DNA of 64,000 nucleotides. Source: Octopus vulgaris. Lineage: Eukaryota. Each line of letters starts with the position of its first letter. The first letter of the stretch is position 1. A model generated the notes under the pieces. The model was not told where the DNA came from and did not search any database. It saw only the letters and a program-made list of their open reading frames with translations. The DNA is taken from contig OX597833.1 of the NCBI GenBank assembly GCA_951406725.2, positions 56,792,001 through 56,856,000 on the forward strand, given 5' to 3'. Positions 12,531-40,430 of the stretch are shown in pieces. Made by a program: the position numbers and the translations under genes.

Positions 12531-15191
12531 GTGTGTTTGATAAAAAATACCTATAATATCTTCTAACGAATGTATCAATCAGCATCTTTAGTATGAGCCT
12601 TGATTAGCTCGATTGAATTGATATCAAAAGATATATTTGCTTTGAATTAAAAGAAATTGGACACATGAAAAAAATATGATGAAAAAAATGTATGTATCAC
12701 ACATTAACTGTAAATGGAAACACACATTTTTATGAGCATATTATCAAATTGAAAAAATAATATCTGAAATCAGTTGACAACATTTAATTAAGACAATAAA
12801 AAAATATAAATAAAGAGCTGAACTTTAATTATGTCTCTTTAAAAGTTTTAATTTAAGCTTGAAAATTTTCAATGTACATATTTTTGTTCGCTTTAAAAAA
12901 AAAAAGGAAAAAACGGAAAAACTTGATAAAATCAGTTTTTAGTATGTAGACTGAAATTTTAGCAAAAAAAAAATAATAAAGAAAATCAATAAGCTCTGAG
13001 GTTATGCTATTCTTATTAAGGAATTCTAGCTGAGCAAAAGTCATGTTCCCTCTATAATATCACTAAAATATATATTTATCTTGTGTTTTAAACTTACAGA
13101 AAAAAAAAACTAATTTAACAAAAGAAGGAATCTTTAAAAAATATCAGCTAATATATATGTAAAGTTTCTTCTGTTTTTTGTGGCGCAAACTAAATAATAA
13201 GTTCTTAATAATTCCATGATATTTATTATTGCAATAAACAGTGATTCAAATGTAGTATTCTTTGAAATGGTATCAATATCTTATAGATAGAAGAATAAAA
13301 ATGAAGATCTGTATGAGTTGGTAATATTTGCCAATCTTGTTAATGCATAGATAAGTGGGCACCATTTTCATGTTAAAAATATACAAATGGGTATATTTAC
13401 CAGTATATTATACAGGTATCAATTTTGTAAACGGTACTTTCTGTTGATGTTATTTGACAAAATGACCAGCCCCGTTTCTTGATTTTATAGTGACATACAT
13501 TTGTCATTGACAACTGGAAACATTTTTATTGGGCTTGAAAACGGTAAGGAAATGGATGAAATGCTCAAATATTACAGGTAAGGTTGAAATCATTTCACTT
13601 TCATCATTCACCAGCATGCTACCAACAAGACAATGAGGACTATGAGTATACCAAGAGTATATCAAGAGGCTCACATCTACACAAGAATTTATATAGATTA
13701 TCTGAGACTGCAGTTTAAATGAACTAATAAAGAGTATGTACAAATGATGAGAATTGCCCAAATTAGAAACAATTTATATAAATTTTAAAACAATTTTTTT
13801 TGTGTTGTTTTATTACAAGGACAGTTTTGTTTAGTTTTTTGAATGATCTGCAAAGACCAAAAGATGCAAAGTAATTGTGTCTTAGATAAAATATGCTACA
13901 AATATAAACCAATATGGTTGTAGGTGAAGATCAATTTCTGTCGGCTTCAAATTTACAGTACATACTTAAACTAACCAGCAAATTTATAGTATGTACTTCA
14001 AATTGACAGCACACACTTAAACGGTCAGAGAATAATTACTATATAAAGGAAAAATGTTAGAAAAAGCAGTTTAGAAAGATCTAAAAATAAGAAAGTTATT
14101 TGAAAACTAATCAAATTTTAGTCTTCCAATAATTGATTTTACAATATAAATTGAGCTTGTCGTTTTAATTTCGGATAAAAATGTTTTTACCATTTAGGAA
14201 ATGAATTATCAAACGAGCTTTTTGAAAGAAGGTGTGTATTTTAGGCTACATAAACAACGAAATCTAGCATAAACAATTAAAACTGTAAAATCGTAAGTAA
14301 ATATTATAATATGCAATTGAAAATTAAAAATCTAAAAACAAAATAATTCAAAACAAGAAATTAAATTCTGCTGGAAATGCAAGTTAGAATCTAAATCTAA
14401 AAAACAAAGCAGCAAAAGAATTTGAATAAAAATTGAAAGTTAATTTTATTTTTAAATAATACTCTGCAGAAAATGTTTGTAATATGATGTAAAATTTTCC
14501 CCCATGTACAGGTATGGAAAACATTAAAAATAGTTCAATAAAAATCTAAAAGTTAACATAGTCAAGAGCTCTTACTTTATTTACCCCAACCCTCTCTTTT
14601 TAAGTAGATGATTGTGTTCAAGTTGGTGGCATGCTTTAGCCCACAAGTAGGAAAGGGCCAAATGTTTAGAACAATTCCGAGCATGGACAATGGACTTCTC
14701 TGCAGGGTGTCACCAAATATAATGCATCACACACAATTTTACAAGTAAAAAAAATCATTATTTCTCTTTTGAGAAAATAACATTTAAAGTTGATGTCTAT
14801 TGATTATGATAGATAATGTGAAGAATAATTGTCACATACAAAATACTATAATCTTTTTAATAGAAAATACTTAGAACCAAGATTGTTAGCAATAATTTTG
14901 CTAACATCTATTCCAAATGTCCTGCATGTGTGTTCTTCAGTTTGCATACTTAGATGCACGTTTATCTTCAAACTGTATGGTTCGTAATTTTACGTAAAGA
15001 ATTCTAGAAGTTTGAGAGTCTTAAAGATCCCCTGCAGCAAGTCCCAATAATAGAATCCAGTGGCAAGGAGTTTGCATGCGAACATTCAGGCTAATGGTAG
15101 TAGTAGTAGAAATGTATGTCTGTCGTAGAAAGCTTTTGAGGAGGGATAACTCCAAATATAGGACACACCAAAATACAAAGCAGTTAAACAA
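12228..15191 (-). other. Putative long 3' UTR of the 838-aa gene with alternative polyadenylation signals
   Basis: About 3 kb of AT-rich DNA with no recognisable transposon downstream of the stop. AATAAA on the minus strand at 13808-13813 and 12228-12233, each followed by U/GU-rich sequence. Confidence 0.5.
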
Positions 15192-17708
15192 CTACAGCAT
15201 ACCTTCCTCTGTTTGAACTTGGTTTTCTCCATTAGGAAGTGACTGTACATCCTGTGAATGACTTATCACATTGGACTCATTGTCCATATCTGCAGACACA
15301 GAACTGCTATTTTCAGTTGGAATTGTGGATTTCTGTACAGGTAATTCCTCCATTGCAACAGTTGGTTGCTGAGAAATTTCAGAATTATCTTTAACTACAA
15401 TAGATTCTTTGTCATCATCAGCAACAGGCACTTGTTCAACAGAACCAGAAATGTCTATCTGCTCAGCGCTGCTTGGACCATTTTCTGTAGATTTATCATT
15501 TTCAGTATTTGCTACCTCATTTTCAGCTGTTACCTCCTCAGTGTGACTGTCACCCTTTCCAGGTGCATTATCAATATCTTGTTCTGAGACTGCTTCTGAT
15601 GTAATTTCACCTGCTGGTGTTAATTCTGTTGCTATCGTCTCTGCTGCTTCTTTTACTTGTTCAGCTTCATCAGCTGATGCTTTCTCTTCCACTACATCAC
15701 TGCTATTATCCTCATTTGTTTTGGCTTCTGATGGTGTTAAAGCTGCCCCTTCTTCTGTATGTACAGACTGAGCAGATTCTTCTACAGCTGGTTGTTTTGT
15801 TTCCTCTTCTGATGGAATTTCCTCAACAGTTTCTTGGGGTTCTAAATGTTCTTCAGCTACAGATTCATGAGGTTCTTCAATAACAGCCTCTTTGAGTTCC
15901 TCAACCACAGCCTCTCCAGCCTCAGCCACTTGAGATTCTTCGACTGCAATTTTTTGCTGTTCTACAGCTTCGTGTTGCTTTTGCTCAAATTCCTGCTGAA
16001 CTTCTTCCAATACTGCTTCTACTAAGCTCTCTTCATAAGGTTTTTTAACAGGTTCTTCAACAATAGCAGTTTTCTCTTCAATATCCACTAAAACTGGGCT
16101 TTCTGTTGATTGTACCTCTTCAACTACAGATTTAACAGCACTAGCTGCTTCTTCTGTTGGTAGTATTAAGTCCTCTTCATAGGCACCTTTAGGAGAGGGT
16201 AATGCTGAAGGTACTTCAGCTGTCATCAAGTCAGTTGACAAAATATTGTTAGATTCAGTATGTTCACTCTTGAAAATCTCTTCAGTTTTCTCTTCATCTT
16301 CCACAACTGGTGGTGGAGGAGGAGGTAAGCTATCTTCTACTTGATGAGCAGCCTCTTCAATTTCTTGCTTCACAGTATCTACAACGGTGTCTACACTGGT
16401 CTCGGTGATGGCTTCAACAATGTTTCCACTGTCAACACTAGTTTCCTGGAGTTCAACCTTAGGCATAACCAGTGCATCTACACTAGTTTCAGTAGCATCA
16501 GGTTCAACAATTTTACCACTATCTACACTAGTCTCGGCAACATCAATATCCAGGGGAACAGCTGGAATATCAACAGGTTCTTCTTTAGAAACTTTATCTT
16601 CAACAAGTTCTTTAACATCACTACTATCAACATTAGATGTTAATACAGTAGATGATTCAGATTCTTTACTAGTGGGAAGAAATTTATCAATTAAAGAGGA
16701 GGGCATTTTCTCAGAAACAGCTGAAATAACAGTTGATACTTTCTCTTCAACAACAGGAACAACCACTTCTTCAACTTTATCAGCAACTTTAGTCACACCT
16801 TCTTTTACTTTTTCTGTAGCAAAGCTTACAATACCGGCATCTTTTGAATCACTTTCAACCTTTTTCACTTCAGTAACTGTTTCTGAAACGGTAGTGATAA
16901 TTGGCTCAGATTTAATTACTTTGCTGGACTCCTTGGTGAAATGTTGAACCTCAGTAACCACATCCTCTTTTGCAGGAACTGAGTCAATTGCTGAGCCGAC
17001 TGAGTCTGAAAATTTACTAACAGACGAAACTACAGTTTTATATTCTTGAGTGGAGCTACTGGTAATTTTGCTCACTGATTCAGTTGCGCTGGTAGTATGT
17101 TTGGTTACTGATTCTGATACATTGTTACTAAGAGTCTTCACAGATTCATTAGTACCAGACACAACTTTACTAACTTGCTCAGAAGCACTGCTTGTAATTT
17201 TGCTCACTTCTTTTGTGACCATAGTCTTACATTCCTCAGTAACAGATTTCACAACTTCAGATGCAACCTCCATTGCAGTTGCTTTAATATCTTCTGCAAC
17301 ATCTTTCTTGTCAACCATAACAAAATCTTCCTCTTTCTTTTCCAAAGTAGACTTAACTTCTTTAGTCACATCTGAGACAGTTGAAGCAGCTTCAGCTGTA
17401 GCAGATGCTACTTCATCTTTCTTTTCCTCAACCGCAGCTTCAACTTTAGCAGCTTCTGCACTCACAGCCTCTCCCACATCTGTCACATTTTTCAGTATGT
17501 CCAACTCTGTTTTATCTATTTGTATATCTGCGGTTCCTTCCTTGCTCACCTCAACACTAACCCCTTGGAGAAGTGGCTCTTGGGCATTTTCCCCAGAAGC
17601 TGCAGGACGTTCAAATAGCACATTTTCTTCATTTTTTTCAACAGGCTTATCTACTAAATTTTCTTCTTCAGCCTCTTTTTTGGCTTGTTTACCCAAAGAA
17701 CACCCCAT
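15192..17708 (-). CDS. Uninterrupted ORF for an 838-aa acidic, intrinsically disordered, probably N-myristoylated/palmitoylated membrane scaffold (AKAP12/GAP43/BASP1/smAKAP-like architecture; no orthologue recognised)
   Basis: 2.5-kb stop-free ORF in AT-rich DNA. ATG context is AAACATGG, with an in-frame TGA upstream at 17748-17750. N-terminus is MGCSLGKQAKK. E/V/S/T/A/K-rich, with no Trp, a single Arg and two Cys. No transposon motifs. Confidence 0.9.
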   Translation of the reverse strand: MGCSLGKQAKKEAEEENLVDKPVEKNEENVLFERPAASGENAQEPLLQGVSVEVSKEGTADIQIDKTELDILKNVTDVGEAVSAEAAKVEAAVEEKKDEVASATAEAASTVSDVTKEVKSTLEKKEEDFVMVDKKDVAEDIKATAMEVASEVVKSVTEECKTMVTKEVSKITSSASEQVSKVVSGTNESVKTLSNNVSESVTKHTTSATESVSKITSSSTQEYKTVVSSVSKFSDSVGSAIDSVPAKEDVVTEVQHFTKESSKVIKSEPIITTVSETVTEVKKVESDSKDAGIVSFATEKVKEGVTKVADKVEEVVVPVVEEKVSTVISAVSEKMPSSLIDKFLPTSKESESSTVLTSNVDSSDVKELVEDKVSKEEPVDIPAVPLDIDVAETSVDSGKIVEPDATETSVDALVMPKVELQETSVDSGNIVEAITETSVDTVVDTVKQEIEEAAHQVEDSLPPPPPPVVEDEEKTEEIFKSEHTESNNILSTDLMTAEVPSALPSPKGAYEEDLILPTEEAASAVKSVVEEVQSTESPVLVDIEEKTAIVEEPVKKPYEESLVEAVLEEVQQEFEQKQHEAVEQQKIAVEESQVAEAGEAVVEELKEAVIEEPHESVAEEHLEPQETVEEIPSEEETKQPAVEESAQSVHTEEGAALTPSEAKTNEDNSSDVVEEKASADEAEQVKEAAETIATELTPAGEITSEAVSEQDIDNAPGKGDSHTEEVTAENEVANTENDKSTENGPSSAEQIDISGSVEQVPVADDDKESIVVKDNSEISQQPTVAMEELPVQKSTIPTENSSSVSADMDNESNVISHSQDVQSLPNGENQVQTEEGML

Positions 17709-18800
17709 GTTTCCTAGCTTACAGTAATTTCTATTTCTCAGAAAATCTCACAAAAATAAGTTTGTATTTAGCTTCACGTTCTCCTTTACTTTCTTAACTT
17801 CTTATTTTTCTTTCAAAGAAAAAAAACTTACAGATCAACAAATAACTTTGAAGAAACAGAAATACTTCTATTTTTTTCCCTTTTGTTGTAAATTATTAAA
17901 GATATAGTGGACTTCGTTAAAGCATACTTAATTCAACAAAACAACAGCAAATCATTCAAATTACAAAATCCAACAAAAATATGTATGCAAAGTCTTTCAA
18001 AGGAGGATATTTGTCATGGATAAAGCAAATATTTTCTCAACTGAAATACTAAATCCAAATAAGGTACTCCAAGTGTTTAATGTTTCCAATATAATTCAAA
18101 AGTAGAAAATTCCAGGTTTCTCTTTTAGTTAGGTATTCAATCAAGAAAAAAAAAAGTTGTGTAAATCCACGTGAAAGCCACAATTATTGCAACTAATTAA
18201 CAGAAGCTAAGTGAGGAAAACCAACTCACCAAAAAAAAGTTGTAGCAAGAATTCTTGAAATACAAATTGAAAATTTTTTTTTTACACAATAATATAAAAA
18301 AAAGTATTTTTTTTTCCTCTCTTTTTAGCACGTGTGATAGTAAAAAATGGCTTATCCAGTACTGCAATTTCTTTTTCTAGTAAAGAATAAATCTCCAAAA
18401 TGTAAATATGAAATAATCCGAGAGTGTAGAATGAAGAAATCAGTCCAAGTTGGTGTTATAAGGTGTGGGCTTTTTGCTTTCTTCAAGAGCCAGCACAAAA
18501 CATATACTGCTATCTCCTCGACAATTATTACAGATAAAATACAAAGGTATATCCCAGCAGAAAAACTGTAATCTTTTTACCAGAATTTGATTTTCATGAA
18601 GTCTTAATTAATTGATTCCAGGATGCATTTCTAACATCACTGCTACAAGACAAACCTTCTGTCAAATTAAGGAGTTCTGTGGTGTGCGCGCGGCTCTGAT
18701 ATGCAGTCTGTAAGCACAGACAAAACCAGGCAATGTAGCTGACTGCTCAGGAGGAAAGCAGAGGGCAGTAGTGGCTGGTTAGAAATCCTAGCTGCCACTC
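17709..18800 (-). promoter_or_regulatory. Putative 5' UTR/proximal promoter of the 838-aa gene
   Basis: Unique, repeat-free sequence. CACGTG at 18168-18173 and 18329-18334, and a CpG patch GTGCGCGCGG near 18683-18693. Possible minus-strand acceptors at 18041 (TATTTCAG) and 18708 (TTTTGTCTGTGCTTACAG). Confidence 0.35.
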
Positions 18801-19424
18801 CTAACAATGTATGAAGATGGTAGCATAGAGAAAAGTGCTGAGAAGAGAGAAGATTCTTTTCCCATCAGTAAAAGTGAGTTGAGATTAACAGCTATCTAGT
18901 CTGAAGGCTAAACTACTACTGCTGTTGTGAAGGTAAAAGTTATGGTAGGTGTAGTAATGACAGAACTGGCAGTGTTGCGAGTAGTTCTTATAGTAGTGGC
19001 AACAGCTAATGCTGGCTACTGCTGCTCACTAAAACTAGTAGTAGTAGTAATAGTAGTAGTAGCAGCAACAGCAGCAGCAGCAGTAGCAGCAATAGTAGTA
19101 GTAGTAGTAGTAGTTGTAGTAGTAGTAAGGATAAAAAGGGAGGAGTATGTCTAAATACACACACACATACAGTACACAAACACACAAACACAAAGAATAT
19201 CCATCCACCAACTGACTAGGTGTCTGCGGCTATGTCAGGGAGAACTGACTGTCTCAGAAAATGGCTATAGTCAGTGAGTGTTATGTTTCCTTTGCTGTTT
19301 CCACTTCTTGCTTGTCTGACAGACTGACTGCCTGTCTAGTTTGATGCCCCTCTCTTCACACATCAATTCCTTTATCCATTCAGTACACCATGGACTTGTA
19401 CACTACTCAGCACCATTCAATCAG

Positions 19425-19568
<144 letters not shown>

Positions 19569-19624
19569 TTCTCAAATGTTGTACAGAATTGAATTTCAAC
19601 CAACAGAAAACTATGAGGAGGGGA

Positions 19625-19655
<31 letters not shown>

Positions 19656-19967
19656 GGAGTAAATTGAGAAGAATGGAAGGGAAATAGTAAAGAAAGGGAA
19701 ATCTAAAGACAAAAGAAAAAGAAAAAAAAAAAAATACATCAACTTCCCTATGGAAAAAGAATACCAATGAGACTAAGTAGTAACAGAGGGGTGAGAGAGA
19801 AAGAGGAAAAAAGTATTTAAGAGAAGGATATTTTCAAGTAAGAAAGGAAATCAGCCTTCTCACTAACAATAAAAAAAAAAAAACACCCAAGTGGAAAATG
19901 CATTCAAGAGAGGATCACTTTAAAATCACCCCTCTCTTTTTCTCTATCTCTCTCCCTCCCTCCCTCC

Positions 19968-20007
<40 letters not shown>

Positions 20008-20181
20008 CTTCTTCTCCATCTACATATCTGCCTATCTAACTGCATTTGCTTTTATTTTTGTTCTTAATAATTGATTAGAAAGTTGCTCCTGCAATAAGGT
20101 AACAATTATTAGCTCATTAATTATTTCCCCCCCACTTACAGCTCTGAATCCCCCACCGCCAGCTACCAAACCATTTCCCCA

Positions 20182-20228
<47 letters not shown>

Positions 20229-22621
20229 TACACCTACATCTACACCCACTATATAACTATATAACAGAACATTCATCAGTACACCACCACTCTCTTAGGT
20301 TGCTCTATTACTAATGTGACTTGCTCCTGATTTTCATCATTATCTCTATGCTACACTAACAACATATTTTGGAAAGGATTTTTTGTTTTCAGGTCCTCTT
20401 TTTTGTAAAATATTGAGTTAACCGAAGAATTCAGGCATTAAAAATTCCCAAAATTATTTTGGTCTAATTATATTGCTTTGCAAATAATTTTGGTTCAGAG
20501 GAGTCACTTTTGGAGGAGTAGAGGGATGGCAGTGCTGGTGCTTATTTATAGACAGCTACTTAGATGTGTCCACTTAAATTCTTATATACATATATTTATA
20601 CATATATATATATATACAAACATGCATAGCCATTTTCTGGCATATATGGCATGCAAAGATGTATATTAATGTATTCTGATGTGGATGAAGAAAGGAAGAA
20701 AGGAAGGAAGGAATAGAAAGATGAAGTATAGTTATTTTGTTAATCAACATTTTGAATATTAAATCAAAAGCTATCAATTTATGAATTCTAGAACAACTAT
20801 ACCACCCCAGTTTTCAATATCTCTCTATCTCTAGAGAGAAATGGATAATTTGACCACACACACACGCACGCGTGCGCATGTGTGTGTGTGTGTGTGCACT
20901 CTCATAAACCATGCTTTATTTAAAAATGTATGTGAGCTACATTTCATACTAGTTATGTGTACACATCGTTCACATTACACACATAATAAAACAGATACAC
21001 TACATACCGCCACACAATATACGTTATGCACCCACCCACTTTGGTTCTATTTTGTAGTTGGAAGGAAACCGTTCACTTTTATGTTGTTAATACTTTCGGA
21101 AAAGCATGAATGCCACGATATCAGCCAAACTCAGAGATTATGAAAATATATTTATTTAAGCAACTATGTGTGTATGTAATGTATACTATGTATGTATGTA
21201 TGCATGCATGCATACAGTATACATACATACAGAGAGAGAGAGAGAGAGAGAGAGTCAGAGACAGTAAGAATGAATGATATTAGACAGTATAGAAATTTAT
21301 CATTCACATTTAGTTGATTTAATGCAGGTTATATTCTAAAATATAGGGCAATATACACATTAAATACAAAGTCGTATATTTCATACATGTTAGTCATGGT
21401 CATACATAACAGAAACTTTTTCTTGTTTCCTTTTTATTTGCTTTTTTTTTCTTTTCACTTGGTAGATGTACATATGCATACAGATGCCTAATAAAATGCA
21501 TGCATTTTACGTTTGATGTGTAGCAGTTAATATGATTAAAGCTTTTGGTGGGGGCAAGGAGGAGGGGCATAAAATTTTGTTAGTCATAATGGAATGACCA
21601 TGCTGATTAGTAAAACTGTAAACAGGATTTTCAGAGCCATTTACTTGGTATCAGTTGGCATTTATTATGAAGTGACATCTTAAAGCCACTGCTGCTGAGC
21701 TTCCAGAAAAGGACAAATAATACAAATGGCAGGTATAGGAGCAGAGGAAGGGAGAATAGGGGTAAGAAGGCAGAAGAGGATGGAAATGAAAGGCTGAAAA
21801 AAAAGAAGTAAAAAAAAAATAAATAAAGCTGTGATTTGATGAATGAAATTAGTGGGAATGAAAAAAAGAAACTGAAGGAATGATGAATACCAGGTAAGAA
21901 TTAAAAAGAGATAGATAGAGAGAATGAAATAAGCTGGAAAGAAAATTATGATAAAATATAAGGGAAAAAGGCTCCAGATTTAGAAGAAATTGTTGCTTAA
22001 TTCCTTGAGTCATTTTCACATGACTTCAATTATTTGGGGTTTAAATCGGAACCGAATTTAAAATTATTTAATTGTATTACGAAGCGAATATTTTAAAAAT
22101 CTATATGTATGTGCATAACTATGAATAAAAGATTGCATGTGATGACACAATGTAATGATACGCACGTGATGATAATTCATGTGTGCAAGGGTTCTTGCAA
22201 GGGTATGCACATGTGGTTGTGTATTTCGATGAGTGTTTGTATGCTAAAGTGTGTCTGTATAAGCATTATTATCGAACATGTATGCACAATAAAACAGCTA
22301 TTTTTCACGTTTTATCAAATATACAGGTGATGGTTGTAAAAAAAGAATTCGATAGTTATGCCAAAGATTGGTCCAGTTGAATTACTTTCAGACTTATCCA
22401 TCAGACATTACAGCCACAGATATATGACAGATATTGCATATAAGATTATGCAACTGAAACACATATATACATATCTTTATATAAATATATACATACATGC
22501 ATACATACATATTAATGTAATAAAACTCTGAGTAGTAACAAAGAATAAACTCAACACACCAATAAAATACATTTATATTGATGCGTATGTGCGTATATAT
22601 CAATATCTTTCTATTTCTCTA

Positions 22622-22655
<34 letters not shown>

Positions 22656-22718
22656 GATATATATATATATATACACACATACACATACATATACCTAAAT
22701 ACACACACACACGCACAC

Positions 22719-22753
<35 letters not shown>

Positions 22754-22787
22754 TACACAATCTCATTCTTTCTCCCACTCTCATTTG

Positions 22788-22945
22788 AGCTTCTTTCAGT
22801 TTCCATCTGTCATATTAACTCACAAGGCTTTGTGGTTAGTCTGGGACTATAATAGAAGACACTTTCCTAAGGTGAGACATAGTAAGGCTGAACTTGAAAC
22901 CATGTGATTCGAAAGCGAACCTCTTAACCACACAGTTATGCTTAC
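22788..22945 (-). mobile_element. Family A SINE 5' portion
   Basis: AGCTTCTTTCAGTTTCCATCTG...ACTCACAAGGCTTTG...CCACACAG. Confidence 0.7.
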
Positions 22946-23664
22946 ATACATACTTGCTTACAAGAAAAAATACTCAACAGGATACATAAGTTCATTTCCA
23001 AGCTGATGATTCATTCTGCTGTGATTCTTTAGTCACCCGAATGAATCCACACAACTAAGAAACTTAGAGTAATGACAAAGCGAGCCATCAGATTCAAAAG
23101 TATAAATACACATATATGTGTGCACATATTTTTTTCACATCCTGTTTCCATGCTGGCATTGGCTGGAGATATACATATATTTGTGTGTGTGTGTGAGAGA
23201 GAGAGTGTGTGTGTGTGTAGCTTCAGAAAAGAATAAATTTCACATAGTTCAAAATTTGTATTCTACAGCTGTTTCGTAAGGATAAACACCACCAAATTTG
23301 CAATTACGTAACTGTTATTGATATTTAATTTAATTTAATTTAGTACCACAAATATGAAATATACTTTTGATGTTTATCTTAATGAAACAGCTGTCAAACA
23401 CAAATATGAAATACATGTGAAATTTCTGCATTTCTGTTTTTATTCAAAATATGTTGCTTTAGCTGATTATGTAAATACATGGTCATTGATTCTATTTGGA
23501 TTTACTACAAAATAATAATGTGTTTGGGTATAACAATCTGTTATTAATTGGGCCTTTAATTATCATGGATTTATTCTTTAATGTTTATACATCAATTTTC
23601 TATATGGCTATGGATGAGTGGATGGATGGATAGATAGATAATACACACATGCACATGCATACAG

Positions 23665-24710
23665 TTAAGCCCCAACACTTCCTGTAAAGTCTATGCTTGG
23701 TGTCTAGAAAAGAGATGAAAGGATAGATGTTGTTGAGCCCAAGCTAGCTGAAGAACTGTGTGGTTTTCATCCAGAACACAGTACAACTGACCAGATATTC
23801 ACTCTACAGCAGGTCTTCAAGAAATTGTGGGAATATTGCCAAAACGTGTATGCTTGGCTAGTAGACCTCACAAAGTATATGACCATGTGCCACAGGACAT
23901 GGCATGGAGGGTTTTGCAGGAGTTTTGAGGCCCAATGCGTAACTTCTGGTTTCCATGAAGTCTATATGCATACACAAATGTTTGTGCTTGGATAAATGGT
24001 GCTAAGTCAAAGCCTTTCAATCTGGGAGTTGGACTCAAACAAGGGTTCATATTATCACTCTCCTTTTCATAATTTTTATAAACTAGATTGGCATGTAAAG
24101 CAATTGTGGAAGTGGCATCACAACAGGTGAGTGTCAGATCAGTTGGCTGATAACTACAGACAACCTGGTGCTACTAGGCTCATCAAGTGATCTCCAGTAT
24201 GTACTAGTTTCCCTATTAAGTACAGCAAGGCAAGGAAGATAATTAGTGCTGCAAAAACTGAGATATTGGTCCTCTCAAAACAGTCTTCTCAGTGCACTCT
24301 GCATTTTAATGGAATATCATTCAGGCAAGTGGAAAACTTTAAGTATCTTAAGGCTGTATTTATGAGTGATGGAAGGCAGGAGGCCAAATTTAATGCAAGA
24401 ATTGTAGGTGCTGGTACAGTAATGTGCTAGCTTCGACATTTAATCCCCAGAAGAGGAAAGTTCCATTTAAAAAAATGGCTAAACTTGCTATCTTCGGGTT
24501 TTGTGCCTATCCTACCTATGGTCATGAATGCTGGATAATGACCAAAAGAGTACAATTGAAAATAACAAGCAGCTGAAATGCTGGTTCTCCAAAGGATCTC
24601 AGAAGTAACATTACTTGACAGTGTGTATAGCTCTGAGATCAGGATGTCTCTCTAGATCAAACTGCTACTTCACACTGAGAGATCACAGCTCTGGTACTAT
24701 GAACATGTGC
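23665..24710 (+). mobile_element. Decayed RTE-clade LINE reverse transcriptase fragment
   Basis: KVYA.CLEKR, EPKLAEELCGFHPEHSTTDQIFTLQQVFKKLWEY, GVGLKQG, VENFKYL and LPYGHECW-like motifs with frameshifts. Confidence 0.85.
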
Positions 24711-24974
24711 ACGTTGTCATCATCTCAGTGGTTTTACAATTCTGGAATGGATTGCTTTAATTTTGATACTTGTACATAATGTCATTTGCTCAGTCAGCAA
24801 CCTCTTAGGAATGAAACAAAAATGATTTCTCCAAAAAGTATTTCTATAAAATTGAGCTTAAATCCCTTGTAAACATGAAAAAAGTCACATAGTATAAATA
24901 AAGTGTATTAGTATATTCCTCGAATGATACATCATTGAAAAAAATTATGAAAATTAGGGTGTTTGTGTATCCTT

Positions 24975-25250
24975 TATCTTTCACTTTTTTCAGTCACTAA
25001 ACTGCAGCCATACCCCAGTACTTTTTAATATTTTAAAGTCTGGTACTTATTCCATTCATCTCCTTGGCCAAACTGCTAACAGTGATATCAACGACCCAAT
25101 ACCAATCATCATGCAGTGACAAGGAAGGCACAAACACAAAAGTATCAATCACAAGGCACTGGTTAGCCCAGGGCTATAGGAGAAAACATTTGCCCAAGGC
25201 ACAACCCAGTGGAACTGATCCCAAAACCACATAGTTGCAAAGCAAGCTCT
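24975..25250 (-). mobile_element. Diverged family A SINE
   Basis: TTCAGTCACTAAACTGCAGCCAT...GGCTATAGGAGAAAACATTTGCCCAAGG aligns to the family A reverse complement. Confidence 0.65.
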
Positions 25251-25254
25251 GCAT

Positions 25255-25298
<44 letters not shown>

Positions 25299-25340
25299 TT
25301 TTAACAGTGACTTTGAAGTTTCAGCTTATTAGACATCAAC

Positions 25341-25737
25341 AGGCGCAGGAGTGGCTGTGTGGTAAGTAGCTTGTTTACCAACCAAATGGTTCCGGGTTCA
25401 GTGCCACTGCGTGGCATCTTGGGCAAGTGTCTTCTGCTATAGCATTGGGCCGACCAAAGCCTTGTGAGTGGATTTGGTAGACGGAAACTGAAAGAAGCCT
25501 ATCGTATATATGTATATGTATGTGCGTGTATATGTTTGTCCCCCTAGCATTGCTTGACAACTGATGCTGGTGTGTTTACGTCCCCGTCACATAGCAGTTC
25601 GGCAAAAGAGACCAATAGAATAAGTACTGGGCTTACAAAGAATAAGTCCCAGGGTCGATTTGCTCGACTAAAGGCGGTGCTCCAGCATGGCTGCAGTCAA
25701 ATGACTGAAACAAGTAAAAGAGTAAAAGAGTAAGAGT
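25341..25737 (+). mobile_element. tRNA-derived SINE, family A (full length)
   Basis: Same head, core and tail as 8077. AACAG is duplicated at 25338-25342 and 25738-25742. Confidence 0.9.
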
Positions 25738-27614
25738 AACAGTTTGATGACAACTAGTAAACCAAATCTTCAAAGTCACTGTCAACCTTCTTGTAAAAAT
25801 GAATAAACGTGATACTCTAAAAAGTATTTTTAACTGTTTTTATACATAACTTTACATAAAAATAAACATTAATGTCTGCGTGTGTTTGTGAGTACATGTA
25901 TATGCAAGTATCCACAGACTCACTCATATACACACAATATACACAATCATATATAATTAATTGTTGTATGTGAACAAATTTTATCAGGAAACTATTTATT
26001 TGTAAATGTCATAAGAAATTTAAGTAGTGGAAGCAAAATATTATGCAACAAGTCAGTGTATAATTAAGTTCAATCTGGAGTTGGCTGGATGATATTTTAG
26101 AAACTGAATCTGAACTATAGGACAATGTACAGTATAGAACAGCTTAACAGTGTAACATATAGATAGATATAAAATATAATTGATCTATTGTGAACAGGAA
26201 TGATTAACTGTTACACCCTGCCACTGCCGTTACCACTTTACATACAAACAAACACACATGGTTCACACTTGAAAGAATACAGGGAAGCAACTGTTATATT
26301 GTACCTCCTAAACAAAGAAGGGGTGTGATCTCAGAGAATGGATCAACATTAAACTGAATGGTAGGAGCTGGGGTATATGTCAATCTAAATCACAATGGGT
26401 GAAACTGCACTTATGAAAACATGGCCCACTTCACTCACCCATGTGTGGAGTAGTAGCAGTGGTGATGGTGGTGGTGGTGGTGATGGTGGTAATATGTGTT
26501 CACTGTCAGCTGGTAGTTGACAGCAGCTGGGACATTGGGTAGGCCAATTAAGACTTAGAAGTGAAGTGGTAATTAGAAGTGACCATAACCAAGTGTGCCC
26601 CACACTCTCTTAAAAAAAAAAATCAATGAGAATAGGAATAATAGGGTGGTGGTAGTAGGAGGAGGAGGAAGAGGAGGATGTTGATAATCATGAAGGTGGT
26701 GATACTGGGGGGGCATATGCTTGGACATAAAATTGTATCCTGAGGCAAGGCATATTTGTCTACAACTTAAAAAAAAAAGTGGTACTTAGGCTGACTTAAA
26801 ACTTCATACTATTGCTGAACAATTAAAAAGGCCATCAAGCTGTGTAGCAACAAGTCACCAACTTCAAACATAAAAGGAAGTTTTAAAATTTACAGAAAAC
26901 ATCACCTGATGCTTGCACTGGAAAACAGACATTAAAGTTGAGAAAAAAACGAATGCACTCATTCTCTTACAAGACAATTCAATCTGAGTTACGCGCGTGT
27001 GTTGATCAAGATCCAGTACAATACTTTGAAGGTCTTAATAGTTCCCAACTCATCAGTGAAAACAAAATCATAGCAAATGCTGAAGTAGCCATCAGTGATT
27101 TGCTATCTTCGATTACAGTCAAGACTATATCCAAGAGGTGTGTTACATTTGTGAGAAACGGGTGATGAATGCAGAGCAGCAGAGACATAGGAAAGAATGG
27201 AAACGAGAATGATTTGCTAGCTGAATGGAGTATGATTGAGAGAGAGAGAAGACAAACAATAAATTGCAGAGAACTAGGAAAAGAGAGCCAGTGGTGTTGC
27301 AGAGAGAAATGGGATGAGATGGCTGGGTCATGTGCAGAAGAAGGATGAAAGTGACTGGGTGAAAGGTATGATGGAAATGATTATGGACAGAAGAAGGAGA
27401 AGACTAAAAAAAACAGGACTAAAGATGATGATGGAGAAGGGAATGAGGACAAAGGAGATGACCAGGGGAAATGTAGATGATTGAGCAAAATGGTGAAGAC
27501 AGTTATGAGGCTCACAAAGCGAACCTCTGCTTTAGCATGAAAAATGGTCTTGAAAATGTTTGTTGTATCTGGGAAGAAGTATATATTAGTATTCATGAGT
27601 GATTAATATAAACT

Positions 27615-27996
27615 GGAGGCGCAATGGCCCAGTGGTTAGGGCAGCGGACTCGCGGTCGTGGGATCATGGTTTTGATTCCCAGACCGGGTGTTGTGAGTGT
27701 TTATTGAGCAAAAACACCTAAAGCTCCACGAAGCTCCGGCAGGGATGGTGGTGATCCCTGCTGTACTCTTTCACCACAACTTTCTCTCACTCTTACTTCC
27801 TTTTTCTGTTGTACCTGTATTTCAAAGGGCCAGCCTTGTCACTCACTGTGTCACACTGAATATCCCCGAGAACTGCGTTAAGGGTAAACGTGTCTGTGGA
27901 GTGCTCAGCCACTTACACGTTAATTTCACGAGCAGGCTGTTCCGTTGATCAGATCAACCGGAACCCTCGTCGTCGTAACCGACGGAGTGCTTCCCC
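27615..27996 (+). mobile_element. tRNA-derived SINE, family B (full length, young)
   Basis: tRNA-like head GGAGGCGCAATGGCCCAGTGGTTAGGGCAGCGGACTCGC...GGTTTTGATTCCC. CpG-rich, with a 10-bp TSD AATATAAACT at 27605-27614 and 27997-28006. Confidence 0.9.
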
Positions 27997-28551
27997 AATA
28001 TAAACTATTCAATTCCCAAATCAAAAGTATTAAAGAAATAAACTCATGAGTGAATTGTTTTAATCTTTTTATATAACCCTAATTAGTTGACAATAAATGT
28101 TCAAATTAAAACTATGAGATCAAAATAAGTGTAACTCTCCTAGAGAAAATAGTTTTGATGTAATGTAATAAAGATGGAGTATTTTAAGAATAAAATTCAG
28201 CAAATGCCATGAGAAATAATGTTAGTGACATTTGATAACTCTAAATGGGCTGGGGGTAGTTAACAAGTTCAGGAGAGCATAGTCCATTGTATTCTTGTTA
28301 ACCATAAATAAAATTTGTTTTCACAATAACAAGCAAAGAAAAGCAGAGTAAAAACACTATTTGAGAGTAAGAGAAATTCCTGAAGGAATTTCTTGATTAA
28401 AACAAACATACAAAACGGGATAAAAATATATAATTTTACAGCAAAATGGACTGTAGTAGAGTATAATTAAGTAACTTGGTTAAGAACACTACTCAATGTT
28501 TGTGACAATAAAAAAATTCCAATTTTTTCAAACAAGAACTGGATCACTTAA

Positions 28552-28772
28552 CCCTTTAGTGTTCACATTATTCTGCCAAAATTAATACTTCTTTATTCAC
28601 ATTGCTTTGAACTAATCATGCATTATCTTGTAGCTTTGAGATTTTGATGTGGTAGCTGTTAATTTTTAAAACGATATTGTAGGGTTGGTGTGAGAGACCA
28701 GATCTGGCCAGTCGGAACATAAAACAGGCAGAATACTTTTGGCCGGATATGGCCGGTTTAAATGCTAAAGGG
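28552..28772. mobile_element. piggyBac-type MITE
   Basis: TTAA TSD on both sides and TIRs CCCTTTAG.../...CTAAAGGG. Homologous to 57913-58091. Confidence 0.85.
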
Positions 28773-30122
28773 TTAAAGTGTTTTCTATTAGTTCCTGTGA
28801 GAAGGAGCAATGCCCACAACCATTTGTAGATCTTCCCAGACTGAAGGATAGAGATAGCTGAGCAAATTCAATTTAGATACGTTTACTTAAATCTTTGTAG
28901 CTTGTTGGGTAGAGAGAGACAACATAGGTCATGGGGAAATTCTATAAGACTGTGCTTTGGGGAAAAGGGATTGGAAGAATCAACAGTATTCACTTTCAAG
29001 TAACTTAAGTTTATAACATTTTATAAACCCAAGTTTATAGCTCCTCTATTACAAAATGAAAGACAAATTTATAAAAGGTATTTTGCATGTGAGATTTAAA
29101 TGACATCTAGAGATGAGCGTTAAAGGTCTAATATGGATTCCAATAATAAAAATATGTTTATCACGAGAAAGACAATTATTGCCAATTACCTTTCATAATA
29201 ATTTTATTATTCTCACTGATGACCAAGCAAGGTGTAATAACATGATAAAACAGTGTCTGTGAAACACTCCACTACATCTTCCACTTATGGATCATCAATA
29301 TCACTGCTTCATTTAACATCTGTTTTTTCAATGTTTGCATGACTTAAACTAGTATTACAAACTACATCTGTCACCAGAGAAACTACACAGAAATCAGATA
29401 ACATTTTCAGTTTTCCCTCCAGTATAACTGGAGCAAAAGACTTACATGACTGGATATTATTCTTCCTCGTATCAGCTACAGTATTGATGAGAAATGTGCA
29501 AAGAATAGCGGGGAGGAGGTATAGAAGGATTTGGAGAAAGACGGAAAGAAAAAGAAAAAAAAATAAGAAAAACAATGAAGAGAAAGTTAGCAAGAGAGCG
29601 AGAGGGATGTGTAACAGATCAGAGTAAAAGTGTAAAGTAGAAATAGAGGGAAGAGAAGAGAAAGAGAGATATGGTGATTGGGGAAGAGATAACATGAAAA
29701 ATAGAAGACAGAGAGAGTGGAGAGCGGGGAGAAAGAAAGAAATAGGAGTGATGAAAGGGAATATAAAAAGAATCAGTTCTGTTGAATTCCTAGTGTACTT
29801 CCAATCTATAAAGAATGTTAAAAGCTGACTACCCTAACTATGCAGATGTAAAATTCAGAGTTGAAGGGAAAAGCAGCTAGCTTCTGGGGAAAAAAAAAAA
29901 TTTTTTTTTTTTAAAATCTACATGTTACTATATATTTAAAGACAGCAAAAAGATTTATTGGCTGTAATCTGTCATTGTATTATGTACATAGTTAACAACA
30001 CATCAATTTAACTGTTTAGAATTTACAACTCTGAGCCAATTTACATACACTATCCACATATAATTAGTCATTTCGTTTTATTTGATGTGTTTGGGGTTTC
30101 TAGGAAAACTTTCTCCTTCTCC

Positions 30123-30158
<36 letters not shown>

Positions 30159-30622
30159 GTATCTCTCTCTCCCTCTTTCTCTCTCTCATTTCACTTTTTC
30201 AGATAAGTCTGTAACATTAATATACATCACTGAAATTTCTGAATAATACTTTGTTAGATAAATTTTCATTTTTCTTTCTTTTTTTTTTTTTTCCTTATTT
30301 ATTTAATATATAGTAAAAGAAGAAATAATCAAGCTACTAATTGATTTAAAATGAAGCATCATTCCAAAACTTTATTATTAGGAATGCACAGCAGTGAAAT
30401 AGATAGTATTAGCAACACAACAACATAAATAAGATTAACACATTTTTCTAAACTCAGATCAATAAAAGGGGTACCGGTAATGTATTGGAACAAATAAAGA
30501 GAATCTAGTATATAAATTTTAAAGTGGCTTCTCGGAATTAGCTTGGGTAACTCAATAACAGCTGTTGCGATTTGAGTTTTTGAAGGAACATATTCTGAAT
30601 GATGATATTCTTCGCTTCCCAC

Positions 30623-31219
30623 ATATTCTTTTATTCTTTTACTTGTTTCAGTCATTTGACAGCAGCCAAGCTGGAGCACCACCTTTAGTCGAACAAATAG
30701 ACCCCAGGACTTATTCTTTGTAAACCTACTACTTATTCTATTGGTCTCTTGGATCTTTTTGGTTTGAACGGCAGTTTTTTCTAGCAGTGTCATATGAAAT
30801 TGTTACCCATAATTATGACCCTAGTATCGATCTATTGCATTTCAATCTCTTTTAGAGTTAGGGTTAGGGGTGGGGGAAGGGTATCTTTTTTTCTTCACAA
30901 ATGTAAATAAACCCAATCTGTTTCTTAAACAAGGGACATATTCATACGACACAGAATGTTGTTTACCTCAATGGACGTCATTGATTGGTTGAAATTGCAG
31001 AAATTGAAGAAAAAAAACATCTTACAAACTATAGAATTTTCTCAATAAAGCCAAGAGGAAAAGATGTTTTATAAACACATTCTACCAGTATACGAAGTTT
31101 GAAATTTTTTAGTTACCTAGAAATTATATTAAAAACTGCCGTTCAAACTGAAAAGATCCGGTCTCTTTTGCCAAACCGCTAAGTTACAGGGATGTAAACA
31201 CACCAACATCAGTTGTCAT
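30623..31219 (-). mobile_element. 3' half of family A SINE, interrupted by the MITE above
   Basis: Removing 30751-31167 restores the SINE sequence CTTATTCTAT(C/T)GGTCTCTTTTGCC(G/A)AACCGCTAAGTTAC seen in the copies at 50721 and 51543. Confidence 0.85.
30751..31159. mobile_element. 409-bp MITE with 29-bp TIRs and 8-bp TSD (Merlin-like GG termini), nested in a SINE
   Basis: TIRs GGATCTTTTTGGTTTGAACGGCAGTTTTT (30751-30779) and AAAAACTGCCGTTCAAACTGAAAAGATCC (31131-31159). TSD GGTCTCTT at 30743-30750 and 31160-31167. Confidence 0.85.
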
Positions 31220-32789
31220 ATGTCATTTCTTTCACATAATATGAGCTGTGACTTGAACTCAGTCTTTTACTGAAGTTTAAAATACTAAGAGTCCCATTCC
31301 TCCATTGCATTGTCTTGTATGCTCGATTACAGACAAAAACAAAAAAAGTTACTGACTCATACTCTCAAATACACAAACAGAACAATTGTTTACATTCAGC
31401 TTGTGGAAGTGGATAAATACTTCTGCAAGAGGATAATGGTATTATTTAAAGTGTTAAATGAAATAGAACAAAACTCATTAAACAAGTTCCTTCAGTTGAA
31501 TAGGCAAGAGCAGATAGTTCAAACTGTGTTTTTTACTGACAGAAATACTGATTTCATGACATTTATATCCAAAATAAATATCTCATAATAATGCAATCAA
31601 CATTTAGAGATCTGATTTATTTGTCTCAGTATAATAAAACAACCTGAATGACATTGAATATCAATCTTACCTCAATAGTGATTGTCTAGAGAAAGAGAAG
31701 TTTAAGAAATTTATTGTGTTATTTTCTTTAAGTACAGAGCTTCTACAATAATTGGAGAGAAAGCAAATTGAGTATAATCTGCTGGGTGTGCAGTGTTAAC
31801 AATCAATAGAAATCAAGAGAAAGTGAAATGAGAAAGCAAATGAGTATAAATGTGTTAGCTGATATCTACAGTAGACACAAACTGCACTTACTGATATGGA
31901 CATGTGATGTAAATAAATAGTGTTGGACATAAAAACAAATGTTTTGAGTTAGAACATAAGTTTATATCTCAGAGAGAAAGATTTCAGAAGAAGCAGTTAG
32001 AACAAGGTAAACTGAATTCATTACTCACTTTTACACTACTATCTCACTATTGGGTGCCTTTACATGCTTGTAGAGTCCATTTTACACCAAGTCTCCAACC
32101 TGAGGATAATACAATATCTTAGCACACAGCTTTTTACATCATGAGTCCACAAATCATGGGGTTTCTTTACTTCCTTTCCCTTCACCAATTTCAGAGATCT
32201 TACAGAAGTCATGGCTACCTCCTTTCCACCTTTGATTAAACCATGATAAAAATGACTGAATTGAGAACATTGTGTCTTACAAGATAGAAATGTGCTGTAT
32301 TACAGTTTTATCCAAGACATGCCAGTGGAGAAAGATGGGTCATTAAAATTATGCTAACAATAGTGATACCAATCCAGATGAAAATAATAATGAGTAGTCT
32401 GTAGATAATTATTATAAAACAGATAAATTGAAAACTGCCCAATTGATAAGATTTTATATAAATTATCAATAAACCTGATTGCCAATACATCTAAAATCTC
32501 AACTACTATAAATTATTTCATCAACACAGCCCAATATTCTCAGGTTTGATTTTGTTGCTCCACCCCAAGCTTTATTTGATAACTTCTACCATTGATATAA
32601 ATTATTTCATTGCCTAACTTTGAAGTATGTTGTATCTTCTAAAAGGAATTGTTTTCTCAGATGGAAACTGCAACTTATGGCTTTTCAACAGTGCATATAC
32701 ATTAATTATGTCATATAGATAAAGATTTTATTCTAGACCTGTTTCTGTTGCATTATTCGAATACAGACAGTCTGGTATAGTTATATATA

Positions 32790-34080
32790 TCATCATCATC
32801 ATTTTAACATCTACTTTTCTATGCTTGCATGAGTCAGATGAAATTCAGTGAAGCAGGCATTCTATGGCTGGATGCTCTTCCTATTACAATCCATCATCAA
32901 TTATCAAGCAAGGTAATATTTCCCTCATGCCTAGACATGTTTCTCTTGGATGACTAGAAATGAACAACATTCTTCTTTGTGCAACTGTACTTATCCATGC
33001 ACATCAGATGGCCAAACCAGTGTAGTTGCCTCTCTTGTACACAACATCTGACTCCTCTTATGCCTAATGTTTCTCTTATTTGCACTTTGTCATACATGCA
33101 CACTAACATTGCTCATACAGTGGAGCATACTAGCTTCATTCTTCTCTAGTCTTCGTATGTTCTTTGCATTTGGGGTCTACATCTCCCTGTACATTCACAA
33201 GCATCATACAATGTCTTTCACTGAGAGAGAGAGAGAGTGACCTTTTGTTGCCAACAGAGACAATAGCTCTCTAAACTTTTTTTATTCTAGTGTCTATCTA
33301 CACTTTCAGAACATCATCCTCCACAGCTAATTTAGTCACCTAGGTGACAGAAACCATCCAGTATCTCTAGGAAGCCTCCAGGGTATTTCAGAGAATCAAT
33401 TTCCCATGTGACCTTGGACTTTATGGCACCAGTGCTTCTTCCACATACAAAAACTACTTTCTCTGTCAATCTTCTTGCACTTCTTCTGTGTCCAGGACTT
33501 GCATTGGATACACCATTTGGAATTTCGGTCTACATCTTTCTTACATATCAAGCAGGGCCATTGCAGCTTACTAGGATTTTGGTCTTTGCTAAGCTGAGGT
33601 CCTTCAATTCCAGGTTTTGCTTCCATACCTCAAATTACTTTTTTAATTCAGTTACAGATTCTGCTATGAAAACAAGAGCATCAGTCACAGGAACAGCCAA
33701 TTTTTAATTCTATTATAGCCTGGAGAACAATGATAAATAGGAAGGGACTGAAAAATGAGTCCTTGTGAACACTCAATTCATTACTGTATTCATGGCTAAC
33801 TTTCACCTTACTAACAGCTCCCCTGTACATGACTTTTACAGCTTAACAAGCAATTCATCTACCCCTAGCTTCTTCAAAGACTACCATATCACAGAGCAAG
33901 GGACTTTGTCAAAGGCTTTCTCCAAGTCAACAAATACCAAGTATAATGGATTATTCTTAGCTACAAACTTCTCCTGCAATTGTCAAAGAGGACAGCATTG
34001 ATAGTACTTCTACCTGGTACAAAACCAAACTGCATCTCATCTGCTCTAATTCTGCTTCTAATTAATTAGGTTATAACTTA
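32790..34080 (-). mobile_element. Decayed RTE (BovB-like) LINE 3' portion with (GAT)n tail
   Basis: Minus-strand GFVPGRST, LVFVDLEKAFDKVP, SPFLFIIVLQAI and WPCLICKKDVDRNSKWC motifs, with a CATCATCATC tail at 32791. Confidence 0.8.
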
Positions 34081-34145
34081 CTCTGTAATACTTTAAATAT
34101 ATATTTTAATTATATAGAAGGAAACACTGCTAATGATTATAATAG

Positions 34146-36790: not shown

Positions 36791-36839
<49 letters not shown>

Positions 36840-40155: not shown

Positions 40156-40216
<61 letters not shown>

Positions 40217-40239
40217 TACATAAATACACACACACAAAG

Positions 40240-40390: not shown

Positions 40391-40396
40391 ATATGC

Positions 40397-40430
<34 letters not shown>

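Follow-up and report, generated by a model that had tools for sequence, protein, structure and literature searches.

GAP-43 and neurogranin are regarded as proteins of vertebrate neurons, with one loosely related gene in the fly. The IQ motif is the defining element of GAP-43, a protein palmitoylated at Cys3 and Cys4, and igloo has several IQ motifs and an N-acylated long form. The neurogranin gene adjoins SPA17 in human and chicken. SPA17 (Sp17) belongs to the R2D2 family of D/D-domain proteins, and is docked on AKAPs by this domain. In excerpts of two reports, igloo (igl) from Drosophila is presented as an invertebrate 'GAP-43-like' calpacitin (PMC9618489, PMC6917273), and an excerpt of a third one gives the IQ consensus as (I/L/V)QxxxRxxxx(R/K) (PMC3589724).

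In this work we analysed a window of 64,000 nucleotides from Octopus vulgaris (contig OX597833.1, positions 56,792,001 to 56,856,000), in which an initial annotation had pointed out a single-exon, orphan-looking ORF. This ORF runs from 17708 to 15192 on the minus strand, with an in-frame stop nine codons 5' of its ATG, and its product has 838 residues, a net charge of -127 and a pI of 4.2; the acidic ORF and all the motifs that had been named were recovered at the residues given. The features of the window are the following:

14215..15191, minus strand: beginning of the intron, covered by contigs running across the donor; candidate 3' UTR for the read-through form, with AATAAA at 14581 and 14450
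15192..17708, minus strand: 838-codon ORF, i.e., the coding part of exon 1b plus three codons and the stop from the intron (IQ-less read-through form)
15197..15202, minus strand: 5' splice donor GTATGC, read from the sequence, opening an intron of 134,730 bp
15203..17708, minus strand: part present in the spliced isoforms, residues 1–835 and one further base (phase 1); its splice partner is the exon at G000:C20:56672472
16308..16328, minus strand: LPPPPPP, non-random and kept in O. bimaculoides
16389..16535, minus strand: four ETSVD units, a tandem repeat of about 15 residues (1/1000 shuffles)
16794..16811, minus strand: KVKEGV, a lone synuclein-like hexamer in the most amphipathic window; one post hoc match
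17013..17210, minus strand: six 11-residue repeats rich in S/T/K (residues 167–232), net charge +1, predicted 3-11 amphipathic helix
17241..17288, minus strand: amphipathic segment with AKAP-like spacing (residues 141–156), within chance frequency (P about 0.2)
17313..17333, minus strand: EEDFVMV, LIR-like, within chance frequency (P 0.27–0.43)
17688..17708, minus strand: MGCSLGK, predicted Gly2 myristoylation and Cys3 palmitoylation
17709..19417, minus strand: putative unspliced 5' leader of approx. 1.7 kb with 15 upstream ATGs; contig cover reaches about 19417 and shows no joints
19427..19566, no strand: GA/TC microsatellite where the contig cover ends on its 5' side, candidate internal-promoter region
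19567..64000, minus strand: putative intron of the D/D-type transcript, whose ATG lies outside the window, in the D/D exon (G000:C20:56969681)

The SPA17 gene of octopus spans approx. 480 kb, and the ORF is one of its alternative first coding exons; the view of the ORF as an orphan does not hold. Three alternative first exons, all ending in phase 1, precede one shared exon 2. The first contains the D/D domain and is located 160 kb upstream of the ORF on the same strand; its RIIa match (C20:56969532-639) has an E value of 6e-9, and it is 66–69% identical to the N-termini of Sp17 from mussel and chiton. The second is the ORF itself (exon 1b), with the donor G|GTATGC at 15203/15202 and codon 836 on the GT, so that GML, its last three residues, and the stop come from donor and intron sequence. 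The third has 18 codons beginning with Met-Gly (C20:56751626), is located in the interval from the D/D exon to exon 2, and corresponds to the O. vulgaris protein CAI9737863; apart from exon 1b, seven candidate Met-Gly ORFs were detected in this interval, only one of which has a matching protein record. Exon 2 is 52–57% identical to its mussel and chiton counterparts over 23 residues. The donor of the D/D exon in O. vulgaris is a GC, phase-compatible with exon 2, and both exons are joined in a model from Argonauta; the same join would occur in O. vulgaris. The Argonauta protein consists of the D/D domain followed by the same IQ exons (68% identity) and matches the Sp17 chains 9FQR, 8J07 (human) and 7MY4 (zebrafish) with E values from 5e-26 to 3e-19, and its alignment with human and zebrafish SPA17 includes the exon 2 segment. 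On the side of the 1b isoform, proteins P0001 and P0002 gave no RIIa match. A synteny check for SIAE (PF03629) found no candidate.

Exon 1b joins, across 134.7 kb, the exons that encode residues ~52–75 of SPA17 and up to seven IQ motifs; the initial description of the ORF as single-exon was not confirmed. The RefSeq isoforms X2–X5 of O. sinensis are identical to the ORF over residues 1–835 and then continue with three to six IQ motifs (Pfam IQ, E 2.6e-29), and the downstream exons map 135–320 kb further on, in the same contig and strand and in order. A contig (X14) has a loose end at 15203 and continues with the letters of exon 2, its part inside the window being 30 letters long, just short of the bar of 31. 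The automatic names 'golgin B1' and 'IgA1 protease' given to models of this gene were rejected and look driven by composition, the IQ being the only domain found; an ASPM or myosin-type IQ protein was also rejected as its identity.

A central Arg is present in six of the seven octopus IQ motifs, and IQ1 has Lys instead. IQ2 and the IQ of neuromodulin match at 15 of 19 positions, and in the PDB the IQ5 exon matches radial-spoke proteins, Sp17, neuromodulin and neurogranin, with myosin V ranking lower. The serine phosphorylated by PKC (Ser41/Ser36 position) is present in none of the seven motifs, where the residues are N, G, Q, M, G, G and N; for this reason, membership in the GAP-43 family was ruled out. 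This Ser is present in IQ1 of Argonauta, and an excerpt on teleost neurogranin describes it as likewise devoid of the PKC serine (PMC9415131).

Regarding exon 1b, its MGCSLGK start has Gly2 in a myristoylation context (PROSITE PS00008 pattern) and a nearby Cys, as in SH4-type dual-acylation starts, which supports a predicted acylation signal. For the 11-residue repeats, a segment chosen post hoc, neither the period-11 score (0/5000 shuffles) nor the hydrophobic moment as a 3-11 helix (0/2000) was reached by shuffling, and residues 167–232 are helical in a low-confidence AlphaFold model. The ETSVD block is a true 15-residue repeat. The composition of the protein, together with an AlphaFold model without alignment that showed no fold (mean pLDDT 40, pTM 0.23), predicts that it is intrinsically disordered. 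Synuclein homology was rejected, given that it depends on a single hexamer. The ORF by itself had no match in Pfam, NCBIfam, PDB or the ESM Atlas, those to DUF6277 and Baculo_PEP_C being weak and below the cut-off, and a search of the genome for residues 1–336 gave one match, i.e., no paralogue.

A switch between D/D and Met-Gly starts is also found in gene models of other animals, which are annotation models in all taxa beyond octopus. Both starts occur at the same locus in Mytilus trossulus, Rhopilema (LOC135684955) and Branchiostoma lanceolatum. Among 267 compared proteins, 67 have the exon 2 signature: 53 of them with a D/D start, 13 with Met-Gly and one with another start. Thus, Met-Gly accounts for 13 of the 14 N-termini without D/D, and represents nine distinct first exons; a Sepia model (P0248) with a start other than Met-Gly escaped the signature. 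The Met-Gly isoforms of Mytilus (XP_063441376), Rhopilema (XP_065056742), Biomphalaria (XP_055866575), Lymnaea and Solemya use the same exon slot and the Gly2 start, and that of amphioxus (XP_066301499) shares Gly2 but joins one exon later. These first exons encode ~17–130 residues versus 835 in octopus, with no detectable similarity. Relatives of the 835-residue exon were not found among proteins of 30–459 residues, among the best 150 of 699 representative matches, or among 261 other compared proteins, and the two matches among proteins of 460–1467 residues were both from Octopus; the internal function of the exon is therefore unconstrained. In the literature, we did not come across a description of this switch between SPA17 isoforms.

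Taken together, we consider it likely that this first exon of SPA17 swaps the D/D domain for a predicted lipid anchor, and that the resulting isoforms act as a calmodulin reservoir similar to GAP-43 and igloo. Exon 1b would replace the AKAP-binding domain with a predicted myristoyl/palmitoyl anchor that targets the N-terminus to a membrane, and would add a membrane-binding 11-mer helix and an acidic disordered spacer of ~500 residues; the IQ motifs of the spliced isoforms, up to seven, would therefore be held at a membrane. From the calpacitin-type sequence of these motifs, apo-calmodulin would be bound and released in a Ca2+-dependent manner, and the release would not depend on PKC, since the PKC serine is absent; the number of IQ motifs (3–6 in the RefSeq models) may be tuned by alternative splicing. 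Exon 1b would be under its own promoter, probably be used outside cilia and possibly in neurons. The contig cover of the leader may just end at the GA/TC microsatellite. The stop three codons into the intron would produce an acylated acidic form without IQ motifs, able to coat membranes without binding calmodulin.

This last form probably exists, because contigs run through the donor into the intron. Given that this occurs in four of four runs, from four studies, and the spliced join in one of four, the IQ-less protein could even be the main product, i.e., a lipid-anchored coat of membranes or lipid droplets formed by a helix of 11-mers, as in perilipin-4 or synuclein, and an acidic brush, with the IQ splice forms as minor products. 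The O. bimaculoides model XP_014778084, which terminates with the same three residues, the significance of the amphipathic repeat and the AATAAA at 14581 and 14450 agree with this idea. Nevertheless, no run listed with the ORF sequence is recorded as RNA, and those behind the contigs are only guessed to be so; contigs may represent pre-mRNA or DNA and cannot rank the isoforms; in addition, the splice is used by four RefSeq isoforms, and the phase and position of the exon fit a conserved first-exon slot. We hold this possibility as doubtful; it is compatible with the SPA17 first exon, and both may hold.

Some proteins reach cilia by means of dual acylation, and the acylated isoform could be a SPA17 of the ciliary or sperm membrane that uses acylation as its ciliary targeting signal, instead of a neuronal analogue of GAP-43. 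SPA17 is a protein of cilia and flagella according to excerpts of PMC8339350 and PMC11276731, and the closest PDB matches of an IQ exon are radial-spoke proteins. On the other hand, the isoform lacks the D/D domain, through which SPA17 docks on AKAPs, the ORF sequence occurs in 19 runs from seven studies (tissues not given), a breadth not expected of an isoform confined to sperm, and igloo, the GAP-43-like IQ protein, is neural according to the title of its paper. A ciliary role for exon 1b thus seems unlikely.

In the initial annotation, the protein was proposed to be a scaffold of neuronal membranes, bringing together PKA through an AKAP helix, Atg8 through a LIR and Ena/VASP through polyproline. 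The LIR core was seen twice versus 2.4 expected for the composition of the ORF, the acidic LIR once versus 0.32 (P 0.27), the AKAP-type helix four times versus 2.3 (P 0.18) and its long form once versus 0.24 (P 0.2). A complex predicted between residues 130–167 and the octopus PKA-RII D/D dimer scored 0.30, the mark being 0.34, and weighs neither for nor against the scaffold. The initial annotation had asked whether the motifs are conserved islands; in the single orthologue compared, from O. bimaculoides (94–96% identical), substitutions affect 3/157 motif residues and 28/681 flanking residues, with no detectable excess of conservation (Fisher P 0.24, low power). Although residues 141–156, with their AKAP-type spacing, show no change in O. 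bimaculoides, the LPPPPPP run is non-random and the helix, if real, could also dock the D/D isoform of this same locus, the scaffold is unsupported and quite improbable, given that the AKAP and LIR matches are at chance frequency (P 0.16–0.77), motif conservation is not significantly above that of the flanks, and a second polyproline run of the gene is missing in Argonauta.

Returning to the SPA17 isoforms with an anchored IQ region, their presence in cnidarian, mollusc and amphioxus models would give a concrete origin to the GAP-43/neurogranin class, and would provide these animals with a membrane calmodulin buffer of the GAP-43 kind. As a tentative reading, to be taken as a whole, the ancestral eumetazoan SPA17 could have had a ciliary D/D-IQ start and an N-acylated IQ start from an internal promoter, the latter being the source of igloo, neurogranin, GAP-43 and PCP4; neurogranin would be the split-off 3' half of SPA17, and the octopus exon a lineage-specific expansion of 835 residues of a proto-GAP-43, in which the intronic stop turns calmodulin binding off. 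A candidate membrane calmodulin buffer can also be named for cephalopods, animals in which little is known of the machinery of plasticity, and the annotation is corrected, since the octopus 'golgin B1' and 'IgA1 protease' models and the 838-residue 'orphan' belong to SPA17. Should the neural and evolutionary links fail, an unusual yet modest isoform finding would remain.

In comparison with known systems, the octopus protein resembles BASP1, MARCKS and AKAP12 only in bulk, i.e., acylated acidic disorder, and lacks their basic effector domain; with perilipin-4 and synuclein it shares only amphipathic 11-mer repeats rich in S/T/K, and none of these five proteins gave a sequence or profile match to the ORF. 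The proposal of a GAP-43/BASP1-like acylated acidic protein was right in spirit, the isoforms even carrying IQ motifs, but not as a stand-alone gene, this being an exon of SPA17. Igloo, far shorter, is alike by description; short Met-Gly-Cys proteins with three IQ motifs, of the igloo type, are among the matches (P0236, P0241 (Oratosquilla)). GAP-43/neuromodulin and neurogranin share with it a disordered acidic chain, a closely similar IQ motif and a predicted N-terminal lipid anchor, with no similarity shown beyond the IQ; the octopus protein differs in having several IQ motifs, placed at the C-terminus, a length about five times greater and a myristoyl-type start in place of the palmitoylated cysteines of GAP-43. 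With SPA17 (PDB 7MY4, 8J07, 9FQR) it is the same gene, sharing the D/D exon, exon 2 and the C-terminal IQ; the 1b isoform, devoid of the D/D helices (residues 1–51), starts with the 835-residue Met-Gly-Cys exon and has up to seven IQ motifs versus one in the mammalian chains of 147–151 residues.

The 838-codon reading frame on the minus strand of the window (17708–15192) encodes a protein with 17% Glu, 14% Val and a net charge of −127, and matches a single place in the 2.8-Gb genome searched. The initial annotation took it for a single-exon, orphan-looking scaffold; the frame was recovered and each named motif was found at its residue, whereas the single-exon status was not upheld: codons 1–835 belong to an alternative first exon of SPA17. 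Four O. sinensis RefSeq isoforms (1031–1239 aa), which bear the automatic names 'golgin B1' or 'IgA1 protease', match it without a difference over residues 1–835 and then continue into IQ (calmodulin-binding) motifs, 3–6 per isoform (Pfam E 2.6e-29). A donor is present at 15203/15202 (G followed by GTATGC), from which the last three codons and the stop are read. One contig of sequencing run X14 exits the window at 15203 and its onward letters were found in exon 2, although only 30 of its letters fall inside the window, slightly short of the tool's threshold; a second X14 contig likewise ends at 15203. Compared with the O. bimaculoides protein there are 31 substitutions, together with 21 inserted residues spread over four blocks, a pattern consistent with real coding sequence. 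The frame alone had no match in family or structure searches and no confident fold was predicted for it; relatives of the 835-residue exon sought outside Octopus were not detected. At 17088, contigs from three of four runs show G>A, allele and editing being indistinguishable.

By sequence comparison, the gene is SPA17. Among the relatives of the IQ region that have names, most are mollusc proteins combining an RIIa docking/dimerisation (D/D) domain with multiple IQs. Searching the genome with PF02197 located a D/D exon 160 kb upstream, and the exons of the locus (contig C20, OX597833.1, where the window spans 56,792,001–56,856,000) are as follows:

C20:56,969,532–639, minus strand, exon 1a (D/D)
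Window 17708–15203, minus strand, exon 1b (residues 1–835 of the frame)
C20:56,751,626, exon 1c (polybasic, 18 codons long, starting Met-Gly-Asn and ending in phase 1 at a GT donor)
C20:56,672,472, minus strand, exon 2, after a 134.7-kb intron from exon 1b
C20:56,660,563, minus strand, further exon
C20:56,640,572, minus strand, further exon
C20:56,588,490, minus strand, further exon
C20:56,546,29x, minus strand, further exon
C20:56,533,66x, minus strand, further exon
C20:56,520,409, minus strand, further exon
C20:56,516,718, minus strand, further exon
C20:56,487,375, minus strand, further exon

Exon 1a shares 66–69% identity with the N-termini of mussel and chiton Sp17. It stops in phase 1, after codon 51, at a GC donor (C20:56969528, L048) that would open a 297-kb first intron. 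Its joining to exon 2 in this octopus is inferred; in the Argonauta model GAB1603184 (68% identity) the D/D is joined to the same downstream exons, and this model matches PDB Sp17 chains (E 5e-26 to 3e-19) over a region that includes the exon-2 segment. The O. vulgaris protein CAI9737863 begins with exon 1c. At this locus, three phase-compatible first exons thus precede one shared exon. The exon at C20:56546293–56545802 (L030) is alternatively spliced, carries a poly-His tract and two IQs, and is kept in Argonauta and Sepia. A seventh IQ lies in the frame of the exon at C20:56,516,718 and matches the Argonauta C-terminus; there (56516718–56516030, L033), the O. sinensis C-terminus (X2, X3, X5) looks one-base frameshifted, while the frame in this genome runs on to the seventh IQ as in Argonauta. 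Two PKA-RII-like genes lie elsewhere, at C22:7.98 Mb (L049; its frame stays open for 386 codons, so that it may be a retrocopy) and C5:146.86 Mb (L047).

IQ2 and the neuromodulin IQ agree at 15 of 19 positions. The PKC serine is present in none of the seven octopus IQs, and therefore the PKC switch is missing; over 807 IQ motifs of D/D and Met-Gly proteins, this position is mostly Gly (494) or Ser (207). A separate promoter most likely drives the exon 1b form, whose protein would be tethered at the membrane through acylation of Gly2/Cys3 together with the 11-mer helix, while a long acidic spacer would bear 3–7 IQ motifs that hold apo-calmodulin and free it upon Ca2+ entry, by analogy with neuromodulin and neurogranin (PMC3589724). 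In a read-through form all IQs would be removed. Every functional step of this mechanism is one that we infer.

Such an IQ-less form, made by read-through, is probable because contigs of four of four runs (four studies) run through the donor and reach intron positions 14501, 14462, 14215 and past 14000, and because the same three residues close the O. bimaculoides model; the runs are presumed, as a guess, to be RNA, and their contigs reveal neither expression level nor transcript ends. That it is the main product, an IQ-less membrane coat, is rather doubtful. Contig cover reaches ~19417 without joints, giving a putative leader of ~1.7 kb with 15 upstream ATGs; at 19187 an X14 contig has a loose end in a simple repeat, its letters being absent from the 464 kb searched. 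It is unlikely that the exon 1b isoform is a ciliary-membrane form. These readings and the scaffold considered below are not fully exclusive.

The initial annotation suggested an acylated scaffold joining PKA, Atg8 and Ena/VASP. Its predicted acylation signal is supported, while the AKAP-type helices (4 versus 2.3 expected, P 0.18; the best one P about 0.2) and the LIR (2 versus 2.4 expected; acidic form P 0.27) are at chance level; the polyproline run is non-random, another run in the same gene being absent in Argonauta, and the scaffold as a whole is improbable. The six 11-mers are genuine, their period-11 score being reached by 0/5000 shuffles and their 3-11 moment by 0/2000, and this block has a net charge of +1 within an otherwise acidic chain. 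ETSVD belongs to a true 15-mer repeat (1/1000 shuffles), and KVKEGV (P 0.002–0.013) is one post-hoc match. Substitutions in O. bimaculoides fall on 3/157 motif residues versus 28/681 elsewhere, a weak test (P 0.24) that leans towards motif conservation without significance.

As judged from annotated isoforms, the first-exon switch is old. Three animals have a D/D isoform paired with a Met-Gly isoform at one locus: in Mytilus trossulus the two part at residue 51/31, in the jellyfish Rhopilema at 51/17, and in amphioxus at 87/21, which is one exon further on. Biomphalaria has two different Met-Gly starts, like octopus. Among 267 annotation models gathered by searching with the octopus protein as query, 67 carry the exon-2 signature, with 53 D/D starts, 13 Met-Gly starts and one other; one Sepia model, whose start is not Met-Gly, escaped the signature, as did two more proteins that begin Met-Gly. 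The 13 represent nine distinct first exons, eight of them fitting the myristoylation pattern. That Gly2 recurs on first exons unrelated to one another is the strongest argument for a real acylation signal. Daphnia and ostracod multi-IQ proteins (among P0098, P0124, P0104 and P0137) also have Met-Gly starts, the Daphnia one, with about 790 acidic residues ahead of its first IQ, being closest in size to the octopus form; these IQ repeats also form the end of a twitchin-like model from Saccoglossus. In SPA17-like models of mussel, scallop and nemertean (P0077, P0044, P0094, P0146, P0175) the C-terminus is a CaaX-like box, possibly a second lipid anchor or read-through into a neighbouring gene; the Mytilus model carries a Pex19 domain, and copepod SPA17-like models carry GST domains.

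Elsewhere in the window, a reverse-transcriptase fragment (39403–39903, plus strand; RVT_1, E 1.5e-11) is ordinary retroelement debris, a 207-aa frame (45127–45750, plus strand) has no Pfam match and looks, by eye, like the C-terminus of a DNA transposase, and a 234-bp tandem duplication (46765–47237, 99% identical) is recent or an assembly artefact.

GAP43, NRGN and PCP4 may belong to one paralogon, and SPA17 may directly adjoin NRGN. SPA17 and NRGN are close neighbours: a variant within an SPA17 intron acts as a cis-eQTL for NRGN (PMC3759718), and the two genes lie together within 1.3 Mb in human and within 1 Mb in chicken (PMC4642301, PMC6678660); zebrafish nrgnb is also named spa17 (PMC9415131). 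A paper on the D/D superfamily treats SPA17 as a metazoan-wide D/D protein (PMC8339350, where the terms 'IQ motif', 'calmodulin', 'myristoyl' and 'neurogranin' were not found), a review assigns Sp17 three domains, the last calmodulin-binding (PMC11276731), and igloo is cited as the GAP-43-like gene of invertebrates (PMC9618489, PMC6917273). The accessible portions of the literature outside subscription journals yielded nothing on acylated SPA17 isoforms, or tying SPA17 to igloo or GAP-43 origins; PMC11043121 contributed nothing further. We tentatively raise, as a minority possibility, that igloo and the vertebrate calpacitins both arose from acylated SPA17 isoforms of this class. The locus belongs to the SPA17 family, and the exon 1b isoform is itself no D/D protein; it plausibly works like a calpacitin, from which it differs in having no PKC serine.
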